Assembly: GCA_951406725.2 (NCBI GenBank)
Contig: OX597821.1
Location: forward strand, 20,832,001-20,896,000
Reading direction: 5' to 3'
Length of the DNA: 64,000 nt
Origin: Octopus vulgaris
Taxonomy: Eukaryota
Shown: one piece after another, positions 4,155-54,150 of the stretch
Numbering within the stretch: position 1 is the first letter of the stretch
Layout of the letters: each line of letters opens with the position of its first letter
Position numbers and translations under genes: made by a program
The notes under the pieces: generated by a model
Databases searched by the model: none
What the model saw: the letters and a program-made list of their open reading frames with translations, nothing else
What the model was told of the DNA's origin: nothing

Positions 4155-4745
4155 GGTTCAGGAAATATTTAGATTCAGTTGAATATGGTACTTAAGTTAA
4201 AAGCACCAGAATTTGGTATGGTATTATCCATATAATTCAAAACGGTATTATTATAATCAAAATAACCAACAAGGATATCCAAAGGTAATGCAATACGATC
4301 GTTTCATGCGACTCCATTTAATTAAACAATGCAAGTATTACATCAGTTTTAATAATGTAGAGCAATCTTCAGCTGCATATAAATATAGATTCTTTTTTAT
4401 ATTGATTCCATTTACCAACATCACAAAGAGGATAAGTAGGTAGACAGAAAAACAAGTTTCATCAACAACAACATGGTAGTAATTGAAACATATTTCCCTG
4501 TCTTCATGAAACGTGTTTCTCTTTCTACCTCCATACCCTCTTTGTGATGTTGGTAAATGGAATAAGTATAAAAATGAATCTTTTCAATCTTTTCAATTTA
4601 ACTAAATTCTATATTTATATGCAACTGAAGATTGCTCTACATATTAAAACTGATGTAATACTTCCATTGCTTAATTAAGTGGAGTCGCATGCAACGATCG
4701 TACTGCATTACCTTTGGATATCCTTGTTGCTTATTTTGATTATAT
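4153..4745 (-). mobile_element. fold-back non-autonomous PLE-like element in (TA)n
   Basis: Imperfect inverted arms ~4252-4462 and ~4505-4744; the left arm extends to (TA)n at 4153; both arms contain a hammerhead motif. Confidence 0.75.
4288..4378 (-). ncRNA. type I hammerhead ribozyme motif, canonical core, palindromic stem III
   Basis: Minus strand AUGCAG CUGAAGA UUGC..(long loop)..GCAU GAAA CGAUCG UA UUGCAU; 6-bp stem I with one G.U; the mirror copy 4619-4708 (+) has GAAA->GCAA. Confidence 0.7.
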
Positions 4746-4759
4746 ATGTATATATATAT

Positions 4760-5945
4760 AATTTTAAGCATTCCTCCAGGACATGTTTCTGCTCATGCAT
4801 TTTGAGTATTGAAAGTGAAGCAGATTCAGAATAGTTTCTGAGAATAGGCACTTTCAAGTCTTTTTCAAAATTGCAGCCGTTTGAATCAAAATGTTCAGAA
4901 ATTTCTATCGAACGTCTGTTATTGTGCCTGACTTCATATCTGTGCACATTAAATCTTTTCCTTGATTGTTCTGTTGTACAACCAACATAAATCAAGTTGT
5001 GATTCGTGCACTCTACCGCGTACATCAAATGGGAATCTCTACAAGTCCCACCCATAAAATTTCTGCTATGGTTCTTTATGGAATTCACTTGACTCATGTG
5101 GCACAGTGAACGGGGCTTACTTGCGGCTGTTTTTCAAGTTACGGTGTGCAGATACTACAATGTTAGTTTTCTTGCTGTCCGAAATAGGGGTCAATAGATC
5201 TCATATTTTTTTTGTCTAAATCCTATAATAGGCGGTTGAGGAAATATCTGTTTGAAACGAGCATATTTTACCGCAACATGCCGGTAAATGTCAGGCAACA
5301 TTGAGATGCCAGCGAAATTTCAGTGCCAATTAATCACTGTCACTTATTGTATTGTTGCTGAAGTTATGCGTGAAAATGTGACTTTCTTACCTAATGTTAG
5401 ATATTTCATTTGCTATTTCCTTTATTCGTGATTAACTATAACCGAGTTTGACAGAATGGTGTACAAAAGCATTTGCAGATTTCCAGTAATCCCTTATGTC
5501 AGTATAAATCCGTTTTATTCTGAGAAATTGGAATTTCGGATTTGACCAAATTATACGATGTGGATAATTGGAGTGGCGGTGGAGGTAAATGCTGGATAAT
5601 ATGGGCTTGCAAAATAACTCTTTCACTATTCTGCCTCCAGAAGACTTAAATTTCAAAAATTCCAAAACTTCAACGATAGTTTTTGAAAAGCTAGACGTAA
5701 ATTTTATGTTGGACATAAAACTATAGTTTTAGCATAACGGTCAAGATATACTGTGATCCTTCCCAGACAAAATAGTTGCCATCAATGAACCATAAGCAGA
5801 GTATTGGTTCATGACCATGTAGGGATTCGAGTGTCTTCAGTAACTGTGTGTCGAATTTCGTCATGAAGATATTAGCTAAATTAAATGCCATAAGGGTACC
5901 CATGGTATAATCCCACGACTGGTGGTAAAATTTTTATCCAAACGT
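4760..5945 (-). pseudogene. Penelope-like retroelement remnant (RT C-terminal half + GIY-YIG endonuclease), frameshifted
   Basis: ORF pieces MGTLMAFNLANIFM..LWFIDG (RT), IKFT..CKP..YLHRHSNYP..FLRIKRI (thumb), LMYAVEC..IYVGCT..RFNVHR..SEHF (GIY-YIG). Confidence 0.9.
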
Positions 5946-9257: not shown

Positions 9258-9318
<61 letters not shown>

Positions 9319-9323
<5 letters not shown>

Positions 9324-9618
9324 CGTGACCGACCAGGCTATCAGTTGCTGTTACACATCGCTGGTCACAATGCGTTCGCATTGTTTTAGCCTTCGAATGA
9401 CGCCACCCCGCTGGCTAAGCGAGCAGGCCAACAGAAGAAAGAGTGAGAGAAAGAGTACAGCAGGGATCACCCCCCCCCCCCAACCACTGCCAGTGCCTCG
9501 TGGAGCTTTTAGGTGCTTTAGCTCAATAAACACACACAACGCCCAGTCTGGGAATCGAAACCGCAATACTACGACCGCGAGTCCGCTGCCCTAACCACTG
9601 GGCCATTGCGCCTCCACA
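9319..9618 (-). mobile_element. tRNA-derived SINE (family C)
   Basis: Minus strand GGCGCAATGGCCCAGTGGTTAGGG (A box)...GGTTTCGATTCCC (B box); homologous to 37164-37462 and 52135-52424. Confidence 0.9.
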
Positions 9619-9661
9619 AATAAATAAATAAATAAATAAATAAATAAATATATATATATTA

Positions 9662-9695
<34 letters not shown>

Positions 9696-9704
9696 ATGTG
9701 TATG

Positions 9705-9751
<47 letters not shown>

Positions 9752-12297: not shown

Positions 12298-12331
<34 letters not shown>

Positions 12332-12339
<8 letters not shown>

Positions 12340-12604
12340 ATGTTACATTACTCGGTAGTCAAGATAAAACTCTGAGTTTCAGATGCCGAAGTGGAAATCC
12401 ACAACACCATCTCTTCGGTTATCTGGCTATTTCCAGATAACCAGATAACCGAAGAGATGGTGTTGTGGATTTCCACTTCGGCATCTGAAACTCAGAGTTT
12501 TATCTTGACTACCGAGTAATGTAACATATTGTATAGATAAATTTCCTCTATTTACATAATATTGAGGTCTCTTTCTTTCTTTTGTTATCTTACCGTTTTA
12601 TCAA
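12332..12604 (+). mobile_element. fold-back non-autonomous element in (TA)n
   Basis: Perfect ~95-bp inverted arms 12332-12426 and 12441-12535; the right arm continues to (TA)n at 12605. Confidence 0.8.
12443..12505 (+). ncRNA. hammerhead-like motif with atypical core CCGAAGA / UGAAA
   Basis: AGAUAA CCGAAGA GAUG..GUGGA-UU-UCCAC..CAUC U GAAA CUC A GAG UU UUAUCU; stems I (6 bp), II and III all pair; mirror copy at 12362-12424 (-). Confidence 0.65.
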
Positions 12605-17519: not shown

Positions 17520-18812
17520 CGTGGGGCGTTCAATAAGTAATGCCCCTGACCCACTTCCCATAGCAGTAGAGCAACGAAACTTGGCACAGTTATTAGTCTT
17601 TTTCTACATAGGAACCACCCAGAGTTACGCATTTCTCCCATCGTATCCTGCAGCTCTGAAGACCATTTTTGTAGAAGACCCCAGCTTGGTCCTCCAACCA
17701 CGACGTGACTTCAGAAATCAAGGCTGCATCATCTGGGAAACGCTTTCCTTTCAAAAACAACTTCATGGCTGGGAAGAGGTGAAAATCAGAGGATGCAAGG
17801 TCAGGAGAGTAGGGGGGATGGGGGATGAGTTCATAGCCGCACGCCTGTGCTTCTGATCTGGCGACACGCGAGTTGTGGACCGGAGCGTTGTCCTGCAGGA
17901 GGCGGATGCCTTTGCTGATCTTGTTCCGCCTCTTGATTTTGATAGCTTCTCTTAATTTCCTCAAAAGTGAAGCATAATAGACTCCTGTAATTGTGGCACC
18001 CTTTGCCAAGAAATCTGTCGTCACTACTCCGTCCTGGTCCCAGAAGACTGTGAGCATGACCTTGCCAGCGGAGGGCTGCACCCTTGCCTTCTTTGGAGGA
18101 GGTGAGTCACGGTGCTTCCACTGCATTGACTGGGCTTTGGTCTCTGGATCATAGTGATGGACCCAGGTTTCATCCTGTGTAATCAGTCTTTTGAAAAATT
18201 TTGACTCATCTTCTTGGCACATCTTCAAATTCATCCTCGCGCTATCGACGCATTCTTGCTTCTGGAAAGGTGTGAGCAGCCTGGGAATCCATCTGGCAGA
18301 CACCTTTTGCATATGCAAATGGTCATGAATGATAGTTTCCACAGACCCGGTACTAATATTGACCTCATGGGCTATTTGGCGAATAGTTATGCGTCGATCT
18401 TCCAAAATGGCAGCCTCAACTTGACGGGACAGATGCCTCGTCAATGGCAGAAGGGGGCGACCAGATCTGGGAGCTGTTTCCACAAAGTTCCGACCATGTT
18501 TGAATTCACGATGCCAGCGTCTTAGAAGGTCATATGATGGGGCATCATCACCATAAGTTACTTTTATTTCATCAAAATTCTCCCGTGGTGTGCGTCCTTT
18601 CAAATACAAAAACCGGATCACTGCTCGACACTCAACAGGCTCCGTTTCACACTTGACTCAGTTCAAACACCTGTAAATCAGAAACCACAATTAGTTCAGA
18701 GCTGTAATTTGCCACTTAATCTATAAAGATATAGGTAATTGCACATGCAATATTTCAGCTAGATCAAACAACAGCAAGTGGGTCAGAAGCATTACTTATT
18801 GAACGCCCGTCG
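17520..18812 (-). mobile_element. full-length mariner transposon (1293 bp) with TIRs and TA target duplication
   Basis: TA|CGTGGGGCGTTCAATAAGTAATGCCCCTGACCCACTT ... AAGTGGGTCAGAAGCATTACTTATTGAACGCCCGTCG|TA. Confidence 0.97.
17593..18645 (-). CDS. mariner DD34D transposase (irritans-like); frame open, expected ATG reads ACG
   Basis: WIPRLL, QDETWVHHYD, LQDNAPVH-(34)-YSPDLASSDFHLF; in-frame upstream ACG GAG CCT GTT GAG TGT CGA GCA GTG. Confidence 0.85.
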   Translation of the reverse strand, partial: TEPVECRAVIRFLYLKGRTPRENFDEIKVTYGDDAPSYDLLRRWHREFKHGRNFVETAPRSGRPLLPLTRHLSRQVEAAILEDRRITIRQIAHEVNISTGSVETIIHDHLHMQKVSARWIPRLLTPFQKQECVDSARMNLKMCQEDESKFFKRLITQDETWVHHYDPETKAQSMQWKHRDSPPPKKARVQPSAGKVMLTVFWDQDGVVTTDFLAKGATITGVYYASLLRKLREAIKIKRRNKISKGIRLLQDNAPVHNSRVARSEAQACGYELIPHPPYSPDLASSDFHLFPAMKLFLKGKRFPDDAALISEVTSWLEDQAGVFYKNGLQSCRIRWEKCVTLGGSYVEKD

Positions 18813-22759: not shown

Positions 22760-23575
22760 AACGTACCCTTCCTCTATTTGCTGTCTTCATGTGTAGGAAT
22801 TTAATGTCTGCATGTGTATGATGAGCACCATGCATCGTTAGGAGCTTTCTTGACTTCATGTCTATCTCCTTTAGCTCCTCTTCTATCCATTTAGGATTCC
22901 AGCGCCATAACCAAGTACTGCGGTTGCGCGCGAGTTTATTACTGAAATTATTTTTCTGGCGTTCATGTCTTGGTATTTGATTCTATCTGCCTCAAGTATT
23001 CCCAGGTATATATAGCTGAATTGGGGTTTGAATGACCTTCATCATTTCAACACTTGGTAGCGATATGCCCTCTCTCCTGACAAGCCTTCCTCTTTTCATC
23101 CCCATAGTAGCACATTTTGTAAGTCCAAAATACATCTTAAAATCATTGGGGAAAATCCGCAGAGACTAGATTAGGGTGTCCAGTTCTGCCTCACTTTCTG
23201 CGAATATCTTCAGGTCGTCTATGAATAGCAAGTGGTTTAGTTTTCCCTTAACTCTTCCAATATCATACCACAACTTTGTTCTCTGTAGTGTTTCACTGAA
23301 GGGGATCGTTCCAAGCACGAATATCAGTGGGGACACACCGTTTCCCTGGAATATTCCTCTCTTGATTTTCACCTCTCCTAGTAATTACTCTCCTGCTGTC
23401 AATTCCGTTCTCCAACATTTCATGCTGTTTCGTATAGGGCTTCTCATATTCTCAGCTACTCCATAAATTTTCATTCTTCTTATAATCCAGGATTACTGTA
23501 TCATATCGTATGCTTTGCGATAATCATCCTAGCCCATGCTCAGGTTTTTATGTCTTCTCTTGTACTTCTTGATAA
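22760..23575 (-). pseudogene. second R4/Dong-type RT remnant
   Basis: DYRKAYDMI, IKRGIFQGNGVSPLIF, LNHLLFIDDLKIFAESE, TMHGAHH. Confidence 0.88.
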
Positions 23576-23672
23576 TTATTATTATTTCTGTTGTTGTGGT
23601 AGCTGTTGTTGTTGCTGTTGTTGTTGCTTGTTGTTATTGCAGCTGCTACTGTCTATCGTTTTCACTAGTTTT

Positions 23673-25869
23673 CTTCCACACATTCTCCACACATTCACAC
23701 ATTCTCCACATTCTCACATTCTCCACATTCTCACATTCTCCACACATTCTCACATTCTCCACATTCTCACATTCTCCACACATTCTCACATTCTCCACAT
23801 TCTCACATTCTCCACATTCTCACATTCTCCATACATTCTCACATTTTCCACACATTCTCACATTCTCCACACATTCTCACATTCTCCACATTCTCACATT
23901 CTCCACACATTCTCACATTCTCCACATTCTCACATTCTCCACACATTCTCACATTCTCCACATTCTCACATTCTCCACATATTCTCACATTCTCCACATT
24001 CTCACATTCTCCACACATTCTCACATTCTCCACATTCTCACATTCTCCACACATTCTTACATTCTCCACATTCTCACATTCTCCACACATTCTCACATTC
24101 TCCACATTCTCACATTCTCCACACATTCTCACATTCTCCACATTCTCACATTCTCCACACATTCTCACATTCTCCACATTCTCACATTCTCCACACATTC
24201 TCACATTCTCCACATTCTCACATTCTCCACACATTCTTACATTCTCCACATTCTCACATTCTCCACACATTCTCACATTCTCCACATTCTCATATTCTCC
24301 ACACATTCTCACATTCTCCACATTCTCACCTTCTCCACACATTCTCACATTCTCCACATTCTCACATTCTCTACACATTCTCACATTCTTCACATTCTCA
24401 CATTCTCCACACATTCTCACATTCTCCACATTCTCACATTCTCCACACATTTTCACATTCTCCACATTCTCACATTCTCCACACATTCTCACATTCTCCA
24501 CATTCTCACATTCTCCACACATTCTCACATTCTCCACATTCTCACATTCTCCACACATTCTCACATTCTCCACATTCTCACATTCTCCACACATTCTCAC
24601 ATTCTCCACATTCTCACATTCTCCACACATTCTTACATTCTCCACATTCTCACATTCTCCACACATTCTCACATTCTCCACATTCTCATATTCTCCACAC
24701 ATTCTCACATTCTCCACATTCTCACATTCTCCACACATTCTCACATTCTCCACATTCTTACATTCTCCACATTCTCACATTCTCCACACATTCTCACATT
24801 CTCCACATTCTCACATTCTCCACATTCTCACATTCTCCACACATTCTCACATTCTCCACATTCTCACATTCTCCACATATTCTCACATTCTCCACATTCT
24901 CACCTTCTCCACACATTCTCACATTCTCCACACATTCTCACATTCTCCACATTCTTACATTCTCCACATTCTCACATTCTCCACACATTCTCACATTCTC
25001 CACATTCTCACATTCTCCACACATTCTCACATTCTCCACACATTCTCACATTCTCCACATTCTCACATTCTCCACACATTCTCACATTCTCCACATTCTC
25101 ACATTCTCCACACATTCTCACATTCTCCACACATTATCACATTCTCCACACATTCTCACATTCTCCACATTCTCACATTATCCACACATTCTCACCTTCT
25201 CCACACATTCTCACATTCTCCACATTCTCACATTCTCTACACATTCTCACATTCTTCACATTCTCACATTCTCCACACATTCTCACATTCTCCACATTCT
25301 CACATTCTCCACACATTTTCACATTCTCCACATTCTCACATTCTCCACACATTCTCACATTCTCCACATTCTCACATTCTCCACACATTCTCACATTCTC
25401 CACATTCTCACATTCTCCACACATTCTCACATTCTCCACATTCTCACATTCTCCACACATTTTCACATTCTCCACATTCTCACATTCTCCACACATTCTC
25501 AAATTCTCCACATTCTCACATTCTCCACACATTCTCACATTCTCCACATTCTCACATTCTCCACACATTCTCACATTCTCCACATTCTTACATTCTCCAC
25601 ATTCTCACATTCTCCACACATTCTCACATTCTCCACATTCTCACATTCTCCACATTCTCACATTCTCCACACATTCTCACATTCTCCACATTCTCACATT
25701 CTCCACACATTCTCACATTCTCCACATTCTCACATTCTCCACACATTCTCACATTCTCCACATTCTCACATTCTCCACACATTCTCACATTCTCCACATT
25801 CTCACATTCTCCACACATTCTCACATTCTCCACATTCTCACATTTTCCACACATTCTCACATTCTCACA
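23673..25869. repeat. 2.2-kb minisatellite of 17- and 19-bp units (TTCTCACATTCTCCACA[CA]), mostly alternating as a 36-bp dimer
   Basis: Direct reading; no G on the + strand across the array. Confidence 0.98.
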
Positions 25870-26060
25870 GAAGACCCTTTCTATATTTGACGTCCTTTAA
25901 TATTTAGCAGCTCGTTTATCATTCCATTTTCATTATTCGATTTCACTATTTTTTAGCCTTTTAATGAGTCAATCTTTATTTTGGTCTTAAATGCTCAATG
26001 TGTGTTTATCTACATGCTTTTGATTACTCATTCCACATGTTTTCCTTCAAACCACTCATA

Positions 26061-27495: not shown

Positions 27496-28590
27496 ATCCG
27501 GTTTTTGTATTTGAAAGGACGCACACCACGGGAGACTTTTGATGAAATGAAAGTAACTTATGGTGATGATGCCCCATCATATGACCTTGTAAAACGCTGG
27601 CATCGTGAATTCAAACATGGTCGGAACTCTGTGGAAACAGCTCCCAGATCTGGTCGCCCCCTTCTGCCATTGATGAGGCATCTGTCCGTCAAGTTGAGGC
27701 TGCCATTTTGGAAGATCGACGCATAATTATTCGCTAAATAGCCCATGAGGTCAAGATTAGTACTGAGTCTGTGGAAACTATCATTCATGACCATTTGCAT
27801 ATGCAAAAGGTGTCTGCCAGATGGATTCCCAGGTTGCTCACGCCTTTCCAGAAGCAAGAACGCGTCGAGTCCTCGAGGGTGGATTTGGAGATGTGCCAAG
27901 AAGATGAGTCAAAAGTTTTCAAAAGACTGATTACACTGGATGAAACCTGGGTCCATCACGATAATGCAGAGACCAAAGCCCAGTCAATGCAGTTGAAGCA
28001 CCGTGACTCACCCCCTCCAAAGAAGGCAAGGGAGCAGCCCTCCGCTGGCAAGGTCATGCACACAGTCTTCTGGGACCAGGACGGAGTAGTGATGACAGAT
28101 TTCTTGGCAAAGGGTACCACAATTGCAGGAGCCTATTATGCTTCACTTTTGAGGAAATTAAGATAAGTTTTCAAAATCAAGAGGTGGGGCAAGATCAGCA
28201 AAGGCATCCGCCTCCTGCAGGACAACGCTCCGTCCACAACTCGCTTGTCGCCAGATCAGAAGCACAGGCGTATGGCTATGAACTCCTCCCCATTCCCCCT
28301 ACTTTCCTGACCTTGCATCCTCTGATTTTCACCTCTTCCCAATCATGAAGTTGTTTTTGAAAGGAAAGCGTTTCCCAGATGATGCAGCCTTGATTTCTGA
28401 AGTCACGTTGAGGTTGGAGGACCAAGCTGGGGTCTTCTACAAAAACGGTCTCCAGAGCCGCATCAAACGATGGGAGAAATGCGTAACTCTGGGTGGTTCC
28501 TATGTAGAAAAAGACTAATAACTGTGCCAAGTTTCGTTGCTCTACTGCTATGGGAAGTGGGTCAGGGCATTACTTATTGAACGCCCCTCA
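27496..28590 (+). mobile_element. 5'-truncated mariner, same family as 17520-18812, frameshifted
   Basis: Begins at ATCCGGTTTTTG (IRFL) next to (TA)n; 3' TIR ...TTATTGAACGCCCCTCA|TA; stops and frameshifts. Confidence 0.95.
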
Positions 28591-29268: not shown

Positions 29269-29287
29269 CATACATACATACATAATA

Positions 29288-29375
29288 TACTTTATTTAAA
29301 GCATATTACTCTACCACTGGTATTTGAGTACTCTTTTTTCCACCTTGTTTCACATTTATGTGTTTACTCCGGTGT
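29288..29375 (+). mobile_element. 3' fragment of the element family at 37484-37756
   Basis: TAAAGCATATTACTCTACC..TGGTATTTGAGTACTC..CCACCTTGTTTCACATTTATG shared. Confidence 0.8.
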
Positions 29376-29436: not shown

Positions 29437-30114
29437 ATAATATTTATAAATATATGATGTATATAATGGATATATATATATTGTTAGATAGATGTATGTA
29501 TATATATATCGCTCTCTCTCTCTGCATATATATATATATGTGTATACACATACAGACAGGGGGGAGGCTGAGAGACAGAGAGAGATAACTACGACAAGCT
29601 TTAAAAAATAGTATACGTAACAAATTAATTTCAAATATGTATTGACAAGCAATCCGAAACACATAAAGTTTTCTTCTTTCCAAGATAACTCCTAGTGCAC
29701 ATCGTATAAAGTAACATTTGATAGATGGCAACCTTTTTAAAACCCACTGAGAAGAAAGAAATATTTTCTCTTTAAAACTAAATCATAAAAAAGAAACTTA
29801 ACTGTAACATAATCCAGTTTCCTTAATCATATAGAGATTTATGCGAGGAGATTTTTCAGGAGCCAGCACATAAATCATGCCACCGGCTTTAAACAACTTG
29901 TCAGGCAAAAGAAACAGCACAACATTATCGAAATACATATGGTGTTTAAAAATCATATGGTGTGTACAATTTAATATCAGATGTTATATACTGCCAAATG
30001 TTGCAAATATTACTGAAATACGAGAAAGTAAGTCATCCTTTACAAATCATCAGAAACCTGAACTACAATCACGAAAATAAAAACTACATAATAAATTTCA
30101 GTATTACTTTTGCG

Positions 30115-30735: not shown

Positions 30736-31869
30736 ATTACTTTTGAAATCGTTTAGATATAAACAACCTTAAAACGGAGAGTATATAAGTACCATGATGC
30801 ATGTGACGAAAACTGAATAGTGATATAATTAAGCTCAACATAATATGGATTTGCTCTAATTCCTCTACACATCTACTGCCATCGAAAGACTTCAGTGGAT
30901 ATGAGCAAATGGTTTCTAATTTGTAACTGAAAACAAAACGACAATCAATAAAGTTGTTAAGGATTAAAAGAAACGGGAAATTTTGAAATTACAAATATGA
31001 GCAGAACAAGAAACAGTATTAACAAAGGAAAAGAATGAAGGAATAATTTGAGGAAAATATGGATTGAAGTGAGCGTGGTCGCGTGTTGGAGGGGAAAGGA
31101 TGAAAAAGAAAAAAAAACTTTCTTGTTTACGATGACCGCGAGTTGGAGAGTGTGGCGGATGAGAAGTCAAAGAGAAAACACATGCACAAATACATATAAT
31201 TAATATGGCTGTTGTTATTGTTGTTGTTGTATTTGTTATTTCGCTTACACACAGGGATGCTAATAACTTGGAGCTAGAACTCAGTATACATATGTTTCAG
31301 AACCAAAAGTCAGTCGATTAGGGAGCAGTAACAAGGAATTAAATAAATGACTATGTAATAAGGAATTTTCATGTCTTCATTTCTTATTCGCTTATTACGC
31401 ACAGATACACATCCACACACAAGCACACACACATAGAGGAAGAAAGAGAGAAAGAGAGAGAGAGACAAAGGAAAAGAGAGGGGAAGACAGAGAGAAAAAG
31501 AGAATGTTAGAGGTAGAGAGGCGAAGAGAGAGAGAGAAAGAATGAGAGAGAAAGTATTTGTTTTAGTCCTTCTTAACTGAAGAACTTACTGAAGTGTCAA
31601 ATTCACATGATCAAATATTGGACTGTACACAACGGCAGTCACTAAGGTGGTTTGCCGAGACAGTCTAACTAGAACCTGCTACTATATGCCTATATATGTG
31701 TCTTTGTTATGTTAGTGTCGCTGTCTCCGATAGACCCATCGACATCTCTAGCGATATACTGCCGACATTTTGTAAGAATTCATTTTCACTGCAGTTCATA
31801 TTCAGAAAATAAAAGTCATTTCTTTTGTTAATATATAACAAATCTTTACTCGCGTACGCAAAAAAGACT

Positions 31870-37163: not shown

Positions 37164-37462
37164 CAATGGCTCAGTAGTTAGGGCAGCGGACTCGCGGTCG
37201 TAGGATCGCGGTTTCGATTCCCAGACTGGGCGTTTTATGTGTTTATTGAGCGAAAACACCTAAAACTCCACGACGCTCCGGCAGGGGGGGGGGTGATCCC
37301 TGCTATACTCTTTCACCACTCTTTCTCTCATTCTTTCGTCTGTTGGCCTGCTCGCTTAGCCAGCGGGGTGTCGTCATTCGAAGGCTAAAACAATGCGAAC
37401 GCATTGTGACCAGCGATGTGTAGCAACATCTGATGGTCTGGTCGGTCACGTGATCACGTGAT
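37164..37462 (+). mobile_element. tRNA-derived SINE (family C)
   Basis: A and B boxes; ends GGTCACGTGATCACGTGAT before (TA)n. Confidence 0.9.
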
Positions 37463-37483
37463 ATATTTATATATATATATATG

Positions 37484-37753
37484 TTATTTAAAAGCAGCGG
37501 AAATTTAACTGAAGTGTCAAATTCACATGATCAAATATTGGATTGTACACAACTGCAGTCACTAAGGTGGTTTTCACAGATAGTCTAACACAGGTTAAGT
37601 CGAAATTGTTAAAAACTGTCCGACGACGGGAACGTGAAACTCCGAGTAACAGCTTTTGTTAAATTTCTGCTGCTTTTAAATAAAGCATATTACTCTACCT
37701 CTGGTATTTGAGTACTCTTTTTCCCACCTTGTTTCACATTTATGCGTTTACTC

Positions 37754-37756
<3 letters not shown>
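37484..37756 (+). mobile_element. non-autonomous element in (TA)n with short 5' inverted copy
   Basis: TTATTTAAAAGCAGCGGAAATTTAAC (37484-37509) is the inverse of GTTAAATTTCTGCTGCTTTTAAATAA (37658-37683). Confidence 0.75.
37611..37657 (+). ncRNA. hammerhead-like motif with atypical core CCGACGA / UGAAA
   Basis: AAAAACUGU CCGACGA CG-GGAA-CG U GAAA CUC C GAG UA ACAGCUUUU; stem I 4+4 bp, stem II closed by a GNRA loop. Confidence 0.65.
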
Positions 37757-37835
<79 letters not shown>

Positions 37836-52134: not shown

Positions 52135-52424
52135 TGTGGAGGCGCAATGGCCTAGTGGTTAGGGCAGCGGACTCGCGGTCGCAGGATCGTGGTTTCGATT
52201 CCCAGACCGGGCGTTGTGAGTGTTTATTGAGCGAAAACACCTAAAAGCTCCACGACGCTCCGGCAGGGGTGGTGATCCCTGCTGTACTCTTTCACCACTC
52301 TTTCTCTCACTCTCTCTTCTGTTGGCCTGCTCGCTTAGCCAGCGGGGTGGCGTCATTCGAAGGCATTGTGACCAGTGATATGTAACAACATCTGATGGTC
52401 TGGTCGGTCACGTGATCACGTGAT
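52135..52424 (+). mobile_element. tRNA-derived SINE (family C)
   Basis: TGGCCTAGTGG A box, GGTTTCGATTCC B box, tail GGTCACGTGATCACGTGAT(ATA). Confidence 0.92.
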
Positions 52425-53009
52425 ATATATATAAATACAGATATATACACTTTGTATATATGAATTATATATACATATTTATATATAGAACACATACACA
52501 AACATATATATATATAAATTAACCCAATAAATATCTGATTCATAATATTTGTTTACATGATTGTGTGGTAGTGGTGGCGATGCTAATTCTCTGTAGACAG
52601 ACGTAGAGAGAGAGTGTGAAAGCGCTGTCAAAGGCGGCGGGGGAAGATATAGGACGCTGTAAAACGACGTTATAGAGAGAAAGGGAAGAAAAGGGAAGTA
52701 GACGGTGTGAAACGACATTATAGAGAGAATGTGAAGGGAAGGGAGGAAAGAGAGAGAAACGGAGGAAGACAGATACATAAAAGAATGTGAGGAGACTTGT
52801 CAAAGTGTGCGTGTTTCACCCTAGTAACCACACTTAGGAATTTCTAACCTAGACAGGGATTTCTAACCTAGCTCACTCGCATCCACACCTCATTTTACAT
52901 GTCCCTGTAAATTTTAGAGTCAATCCGACGGGATCTAGTGGCCCTTAACCCATTCCAATGCCAAAACCAGACAAACATTTCAGAATTATAGATATTGATT
53001 TATGTGTAT

Positions 53010-53866
53010 CCTGTGTCATCCCATAAAAAATGCGGTTTTTTTCAATTACATGAACTTAAAGTCGGAGATGGACAGGGTAAACGAACTGCATCAACTTACT
53101 ATAAAAACAGGTGGTAATTCTGTCTTGTCTTTATTCTTAGTGCAAGTTTTGAAGGGTGCAGTTCGAATTTAAGAGTTATATTCTCAAAGCTATAATGGAA
53201 ATAGCAAAAAAGTATATTTAGCATATTTTGAGTTATGAGTTCAATAAAGGCCACAATGCAACGGACAGTGCGAGAAATATTAATGCAATATATGGGGATC
53301 ACACAATAAGCGTAAACCAGAGTGAACGATGGCTCCATAAATTCCAAGCAGGAAACTACAGCCTAGAAGACGAACACCGCACTGGAATATATCTTGAGCT
53401 CGACAAGTATGTCTTGCAAACCCTGGTAGAATAACATTCTATCATCACTGTTGAGGAACTAGCAAACAAGCTTGGCTTTGGTCATTCAACCATTCATCGA
53501 CACCTGCGTACCATCGGAAAAATCAGCAAATTGGGCCAATGGATTCCTCACAAAATTTCTGAGCCTAATCGCATGCAGTGAGTGAATATGTGCTATTCTT
53601 AGTTGTCACGTCTCACGAATGAACCCTTTTGGGACTGAATAGCGAATGGCGACAAGAAATGGGTTCTCTATAAAAACGTCAAACAATGAAGACAGTTGGT
53701 AGGAAAAGGAAAAATACCGGTACCCCAAGCTAATGACGGTGTTCACCCACATAAGGTGGTGTTGTCTGTGGGGTGGGATATGAAACGTTTAGTCCACTTT
53801 GAACTTTTAAACCCAAACCAAACAATAACAAAGGCGATCTACTGCGAACAGCTTGAGCGGCTTAAG
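53010..53866 (+). mobile_element. decayed mariner (second family), 3'-truncated
   Basis: YEFNKGHNATDSARNINAIYG..ERWLHKFQAGNYSLEDEHRTG, LGQWIPHK, GDKKWVLY, HPHKVVLSVGWD..YCEQLERL. Confidence 0.88.
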
Positions 53867-53952
53867 TTTTGTGGAAACGCGGGAAGCGACGCATTAGACG
53901 TTTATAAATTTCATCAGAGGATTATTGCTATTAGTATTATATTCATCATTTA

Positions 53953-54150
53953 AGGCGTCTAGTTGGCAGTATCGTTACCACACCGCGCAAAATGTTCTGT
54001 GGCATTTCGTCCGTCCTTATGTTCTGAGATCAAATGCCTTCGAGGTCAACTTTGTCTTTCATCCTTACGTGGGCGTTAAGTTGAGTACTGGGGCCAACGA
54101 ACTCGATTCATCGCCGTCCTGAATTTGTTGTCTTTGTCCTAAAAATTGAA
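53953..54150 (+). mobile_element. decayed family-B SINE
   Basis: GTTGGCAGTATCGTT...TTCTGAGATCAAAT...CGAGGTCAACTTTGTCTTTCATCC. Confidence 0.7.

Follow-up and report, generated by a model that had tools for sequence, protein, structure and literature searches.

The window, a stretch of 64,000 nucleotides of Octopus vulgaris DNA, carries at 37611-37657 a 47-nt motif whose elements follow one another as in a type I hammerhead, with three stems around a core and the open ends in stem I. Read from the letters, its parts, all on the forward strand, are the following:

37611-37657: type I hammerhead motif with C at core position 4, lacking one A of the A9/A10.1 pair
37611-37619: 5' strand of stem I
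37620-37626: first core box, CCGACGA (U4C); an additional A follows 37625 in the family
37627-37634: stem II remnant CG-GGAA-CG with its GGAA tetraloop
37635: U at position 11.1, whose partner is the A absent from this copy
37636-37639: second core box, GAAA
37639-37647: palindromic stem III, centre base 37643
37640-37646: CUC-C-GAG of stem III
37647-37648: U-A preceding the predicted cut
37648-37649: predicted cleavage site, after GUA
37649-37657: 3' strand of stem I

The letters that the first-pass annotation had given for this motif were borne out, as was its count of 8 of 9 paired positions in stem I, the exception being an A.C mismatch at the fifth. Its predicted cut between 37648 and 37649 is correctly placed by hammerhead numbering, in agreement with the hammerheads written out in File S2 of PMC8557442. 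When the motif was compared with the core CUGANGA, GAAA and UH, both this copy and its family departed at position 4, which is C, and all other core bases were present. The G10.1-C11.1 pair is also absent, the majority form of the family having A-U at this place and the copy C-G plus an unpaired U.

We found three matches to the pattern CCGANGA..TGAAA in the window against 0.50 expected, and a type I descriptor (CYGANGA, stem II, GAAA, UH and 4 Watson-Crick pairs in stem I) found 3 matches over the two strands, whereas 100 block shuffles averaged 0.01. All three descriptor matches have the CCGA core; the other two are the arms of an inverted pair at 12325-12542. This excess makes a chance likeness to a hammerhead in AT-rich repeat DNA exceedingly improbable, and such a likeness is also at odds with the homologues and with the anatomy of a Penelope-like element (PLE) described below, and with stems I and III, which are near identical to those of the Hydra-2_aMil hammerhead published in PMC8557442. 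In favor of chance, no Rfam match in the window reached the gathering score, and there was no hammerhead among the 17 weak matches in 37450-37800. However, the 12 Rfam matches in 7 loci with canonical homologues did not include a hammerhead either, so the failed match of 37611-37657 carries little weight. Similarly, the isolated 47-mer prefers another fold in ViennaRNA (MFE -6.1, z +0.73), the probability of the hammerhead fold being 7e-6, but since a canonical homologue (L014) also scores low as a monomer (6e-5), monomer folding is weak evidence that cannot separate active from inactive forms. The hammerhead structure has an energy of -0.3 kcal/mol in the 37611-37657 copy versus -2.0 in the majority form, and the base loss in this copy gives rise to a competing CUGUC/GACGG hairpin. 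Stem III had been described as CUC-C-GAG, and these letters stand, although a fold with a one-base loop is impossible: as a monomer the stem has 3 bp and a triloop, and in a dimer 4+4 bp flank a central mismatch (-7.8 kcal/mol for the self-duplex). The palindromic stem III would need a dimer.

A truncated insertion between (TA)n runs

The motif belongs to an insertion that has the following parts; a further fragment of the same family and the neighboring SINE copies are included.

37164-37482: tRNA-like SINE, with other copies at 9299-9733 and 52145-52444
37461-37478: left (TA)n flank, the tail of the SINE at 37164-37482
37479-37509, reverse strand: inverted, tail-less 31-nt copy of 37659-37691 (30/33 identical), at the 5' end of the insertion
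37508-37589, forward strand: 82-nt segment common to 31588-31669 (92.7%), at two-copy depth
37658-37757, forward strand: 3' end of the family, body to ~37690 and then a tail of ~65 nt, marked by the depth peak and loose ends
37710-37715, forward strand: GAGTAC motif in the tail, +61 from the cut site
from 37758: right (TA)n flank
29291-29370, forward strand: heavily 5'-truncated fragment of the 37611-37657 family, tail only, without a hammerhead

The insertion is truncated at its 5' end, where it bears an inverted copy, and has a tail at one of its ends but not the other; these are hallmarks of PLEs as described in the text of PMC8557442, and, as looked for in a PLE, its hammerhead with a palindromic stem III lies in a terminal repeat. 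Insertion into (TA)n, as looked for in the Hydra clade, was found as well; at the 3' end, where that clade would have a canonical CUGA hammerhead, the same architecture is present with C4. The other copy of the family in the window, taken as 29275-29370, has a tiny inverted arm and also lies inside (TA)n.

The 82-nt segment at 37508-37589 and its counterpart at 31588-31669 are on the same strand, 6 kb apart. There is a TTAAC microhomology at the left joint of the segment, ~20 bases separate it from the hammerhead, and it is likely to be host DNA captured during insertion. That one copy lies within the insertion suggests that the template was switched to host DNA close by while the PLE integrated: reverse transcription would have begun at the 3' tail, stopped just 5' of the hammerhead, jumped to the nearby host DNA (31588-31669) and added the short inverted copy.

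No RT/GIY-YIG ORF linked to the family was seen in the window, where the copy is truncated; the upstream part was not recovered. Pfam searches of 126 window ORFs returned only mariner transposase and LINE RT fragments, and ARAGORN found no tRNA. A Hydra profile run on the window gave weak matches, the best of them (iE 0.0024) at 4891-5076 in a different GIY-YIG remnant. This remnant, at 4860-5620 on the reverse strand, is a decayed GIY-YIG PLE ORF (E 0.005) with no hammerhead detected, and is followed by an inverted repeat of ~170 nt around 4270-4730. A weak likeness to the C-terminus of the Hydra endonuclease (iE 0.12) at 29907-29996 has no link to a 3' end. Overall, the window consists of AT-rich DNA with many microsatellites and with remains of mariner and LINE elements, including mariner/Tc1 transposase copies at 17523-18618 (whose 354-aa open frame matches Pfam Transposase_1 with E 2.5e-24), 27496-28587 and 53222-54119. 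Two overlapping open frames of ~785 aa at 23536-25907, with a GC skew of -0.96, probably represent a low-complexity tandem repeat.

Majority form and damaged copy

We aligned contigs of four public runs from three organisms (coded A, B and D; 4 of the 21 runs listed) to 37480-37757 at 80% likeness, and obtained 4835, 8509, 1872 and 499 matching contigs per run. The contigs show no RNA ends, and neither run X13, which is presumed to be RNA, nor two insect metatranscriptome runs (share 0.08) count here as evidence for expression or habitat. In one run (X1), depth rose from 42 at 37590-37609 to 2.1 million at 37700-37709, contig depth not being equal to copy number. The 37611-37657 motif is thus part of a very abundant, 5'-truncated repeat family. 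Among the joints listed, 7 of 10 switch strand, linking 37626-37633 with 37663-37687, and loose ends run into (TA)n at 37690 and at 37753-37754.

An extra A behind 37625 accounted for 95.2, 95.6, 98.0 and 97.3% of the depth of the respective runs and was seen in 24, 27, 16 and 10 contigs. The majority form therefore reads CCGACGA, then a 3-bp stem II (ACG-GGAA-CGU) in which the U, at position 11.1, is paired, then GAAA. The 2-bp stem II capped by GGAA that had been described holds for the 37611-37657 copy and fails for the family, and the unpaired U before GAAA, which had been taken for a feature of the core, is the product of a one-base loss. At position 37621, no listed change, C to T included, reached 4% in any of the four runs, and the loose-end consensus was CCGACGA in all of them (65, 70, 32 and 10 contigs), indicating that C4 is the family state rather than a private mutation, in line with the first-pass annotation. 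The sole listed substitution within 37612-37652 falls at 37643 (C/T/A), the centre of the stem III palindrome. Variable sites numbered 1 of 41 inside the motif versus 10 of 71 downstream, a contrast that falls short of significance (Fisher p 0.053) and is skewed by the lower coverage of the 5' end.

The 37611-37657 copy itself was found without differences in two runs, so the base loss is genomic and not an assembly error. It departs from the majority also at 37662 and 37723. Far from being the cleanest construct, as had been proposed, this damaged copy, which lost a base and gained a competing hairpin, is the least suitable one for testing the core, and a negative assay result with it would say nothing on the family.

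CCGANGA with a bulged U before GAAA could instead be a real alternative core, with the form lacking the A as a viable subfamily. This form contributes 2-5% of family depth (by a crude ratio, some 116 single-copy equivalents in X1 and 175 in X2), the exact copy recurs in two runs, and a second family, at 12449, has A9 directly before a G-C pair and a U before GAAA. However, the A is present in 95-98% of the 37611-37657 family, the copy is off the majority at two further positions, and the loss creates the competing hairpin and leaves C10.1-G11.1, an inversion that Tuschl and Eckstein are said to have found in 1993 to abolish activity. We consider an alternative core improbable.

Relatives among Hydra-clade elements

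The closest systems that we found are the Hydra-2_aMil, Hydra-1_aJap and Hydra-2_aJap hammerheads of Hydra-clade PLEs listed in PMC8557442. The Hydra-2_aMil hammerhead, as written in File S2 of Craig et al. (2021; PMC8557442), has stem I (CUGU/ACAG), stem III and the cut site as in 37611-37657. With the Hydra-clade hammerheads of that file the family has in common the type I arrangement, a short stem I, a stem III of the form ACUC-N-GAGU and a GUA site, and with the elements a stem II tetraloop, a position near the 3' end, insertion into (TA)n and a similar tail motif (PMC8557442). It differs in having C4 and not U4, which is present (CUGA) in 26 of the 26 published Hydra rows of File S2, and in stem II, which has 3 bp opened by A-U versus 4 bp opened by G-C or U.U in the Hydra clade. 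A U before GAAA occurs in 14 of these 26 rows, the second box being written tgaa. Hydra-1_oBim, the octopus family published in the same source, has a different hammerhead and is not the 37611-37657 family.

The family also resembles the minimal PLE hammerheads reported by Cervera and De la Pena (2014; PMC4209133), which have a palindromic, unstable stem III, a predicted need for a dimer, thousands of dispersed truncated copies, and low activity in vitro, which would likewise be expected here. In contrast to our family, the 56 representatives in Fig. S3 of that paper start with CUGA or UUGA and none with CCGA; a core variant reported in its text is U3-A8. Hammerheads in Hydra PLEs, a U before GAAA, a short stem II and U4C as such are already known. 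As a fixed state of an animal retroelement family, U4C was not found described in our comparison, outside of which lay Lunse et al. 2017, Ambros and Flores 1998, figures and preprint supplements; the first of these reportedly deals with minimal PLE hammerheads.

Next, we scanned metagenomes with position 4 left open, using a pattern derived from the 37611-37657 copy, and obtained at least 135 matches in at least 120 loci (~200 stretches in all). Among the 135 matches listed, 121 have a 4-bp stem I, the 3' strand of which was not part of the pattern. All 121 have U4, and at position 10.1-11.1 they have G-C (108), U.U (10) or G.U (3); in the middle of stem III the homologues listed have G, A or C. 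The 14 listed matches without a 4-bp stem I were dropped; five of these have C4 and one has G4, none with hammerhead stems. Nine loci from a viral scan had no stem I in their flanks on inspection and were treated as chance, and a scan of prokaryote genomes gave 0 matches.

A Hydra-type ORF was present in 17 of the 120 loci listed, and by a reading of coordinates 13 of these loci have the hammerhead on the 3' side of the ORF, 2 have it on the 5' side and 2 on the other strand. Four full ORFs beside homologous hammerheads (714-724 aa) carry RWK/RWR, DKT, YRDD and CxCX5C, and Pfam found no family in them; the Hydra diagnostics RWK/RWR, DKT, CxCX5C, CxxC and CxH are all present in ORFs beside homologous hammerheads. 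Among 2520 Hydra-like proteins from a homologue search, no cephalopod is named among the 120 listed. A GAG(C/T)(A/C)C motif, which was not in the search pattern, follows the cut by 60-71 nt in 38 of the 105 loci listed and stands at +61 in the 37611-37657 copy (chance, 0.016 per 30-nt slot). In its GAG(C/T)AC form the motif is conserved and near-palindromic, has a CTCT block before it and lies within the optional tail of Hydra-type elements in many loci (L010-L129); it may be a signal for the start of reverse transcription or for recognition by the endonuclease.

In 23 distinct homologues, stem II pair 19-28 is changed on both sides in 10, and no changes occur in stems I and III, in part because of how the set was built. 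The covariation score of the structure itself (0.107) was exceeded by that of a control with partners slid by +2 columns (0.121). A model built from the metagenome homologues (R1) matches 37611-37657 at 35 bits; this match is partly circular because the metagenome pattern was derived from that copy.

Taken together, we favor the reading, at a probability of about 0.7, that 37611-37657 is a 5'-truncated, one-base-deleted hammerhead at the 3' end of a high-copy family, likely a Hydra-clade PLE, of which the majority C4 form would cleave weakly as a dimer and this copy is likely crippled. We infer the Hydra-clade membership, since no ORF of the 37611-37657 family was seen. The feature is real and its class known; the copy is damaged, and the family has a modest core variant.

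C4 hammerheads and the prospect of cleavage

By analogy with known PLE hammerheads, two hammerheads of a tandem element would likely pair via the palindromic stem III, cut after GUA and trim the precursor RNA; the solitary 37611-37657 copy would have no partner in cis. Minimal PLE hammerheads are inactive as monomers and weakly active as dimers according to PMC4209133 and the review text of PMC6765202. C at core position 4, where U is almost universal among hammerheads, would likely weaken cutting. In a viroid, the U4C variant of Ambros and Flores (1998), as cited in PMC3088659, has CCGA in place of the CUGA uridine turn, as here, and was weakened in vitro, with infectivity kept. The viroid U4C is a rare variant, presumably with tertiary contacts, whereas in our family C4 is the majority state and no tertiary contact is evident. 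The primer table of PMC3088659 also labels an Aedes type I construct cCgauga, and Aedes entries appear in that paper's figure of inactive RNAs, their identity with this construct being uncertain. In our judgement, cleavage of the majority form as a dimer is an even bet, and cleavage of the solitary, deleted copy is unlikely.

The same element may alternatively carry a vestigial hammerhead, a master copy having drifted to U4C, lost useful cleavage and kept spreading, the ribozyme being dispensable, with the motif retained only as a piece of the 3' end recognized by the RT. Consistent with this, a PLE protein inserted no less well in vitro when the hammerhead carried catalytic mutations, as described in PMC11167929, Naiads proliferate without canonical hammerheads as described in PMC8557442, and activity was low after single changes of the CUGA turn in the deep mutational scan of PMC9901934. 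Moreover, copies of a young family carry the sequence of their master without selection, and the conservation contrast of the motif stands at the p of 0.053 given above. On the other hand, the majority form keeps the other core bases and three stems intact, its variable site is confined to the free centre of stem III, U4C activity was enough for infectivity of the viroid (PMC3088659, citing Ambros and Flores 1998), and C4 is found again in the second family of the window and behind a GIY-YIG ORF in a further locus (L060). We regard a vestigial hammerhead as a tenable reading of less than even likelihood, and prefer weak cleavage as a dimer.

The second family is represented in the window by one insertion:

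12325-12542: inverted pair of the second, PLE-like family, with core CCGAAGA, a long stem II, the stem III type of the first family and a similar tail

The pair is near-perfect (106 nt, 97%), has a GUU site and GAGGTC at +64 in its tail, and, being one insertion, counts as one observation. Both arms lack base 10.1, so that A9 faces the U before GAAA. It is an oddity that both hammerhead insertions of the window lack this base.

In L060, a CCGA type I hammerhead at ~2825-2865 on the reverse strand, with a 6-bp stem I, a 4-bp stem II and a GUA site, lies ~250 nt behind a GIY-YIG PLE ORF (L060:3107-4216) and is present as a single copy. This PLE copy is joined via a short (TA) run to a Hydra element. 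The motif was found by regex, and its gap exceeds the first gap of a looser CCGA pattern, which gave 0 matches over 129 loci, the L060 motif being outside its gap range. C4 therefore recurs in the 12325-12542 family and in the L060 PLE copy, with one observation each. We tentatively raise the idea, doubtful as it is, that a C4 hammerhead still able to cleave as a dimer has been adopted by several host PLE families and, in another animal, by at least one PLE copy. If so, a tuned-down natural CCGA core would exist in thousands of copies unseen by CUGA-based searches, some PLE families called hammerhead-less would be misclassified, and a second geometry, with the U bulged and base 10.1 missing, may be viable as well.

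Although the 37611-37657 copy itself is retroelement debris, its family offers a natural test of whether PLE hammerheads must cleave. A very high copy number together with a weakened core would mean either that a low level of cleavage suffices or that none is needed; both outcomes matter for how PLEs transpose and for how much change the uridine turn tolerates. Whole families escape searches that require CUGANGA. As a minor observation, a minimal canonical hammerhead of another PLE family occurs near position 70 of locus L045, close to a Hydra motif on the same contig.
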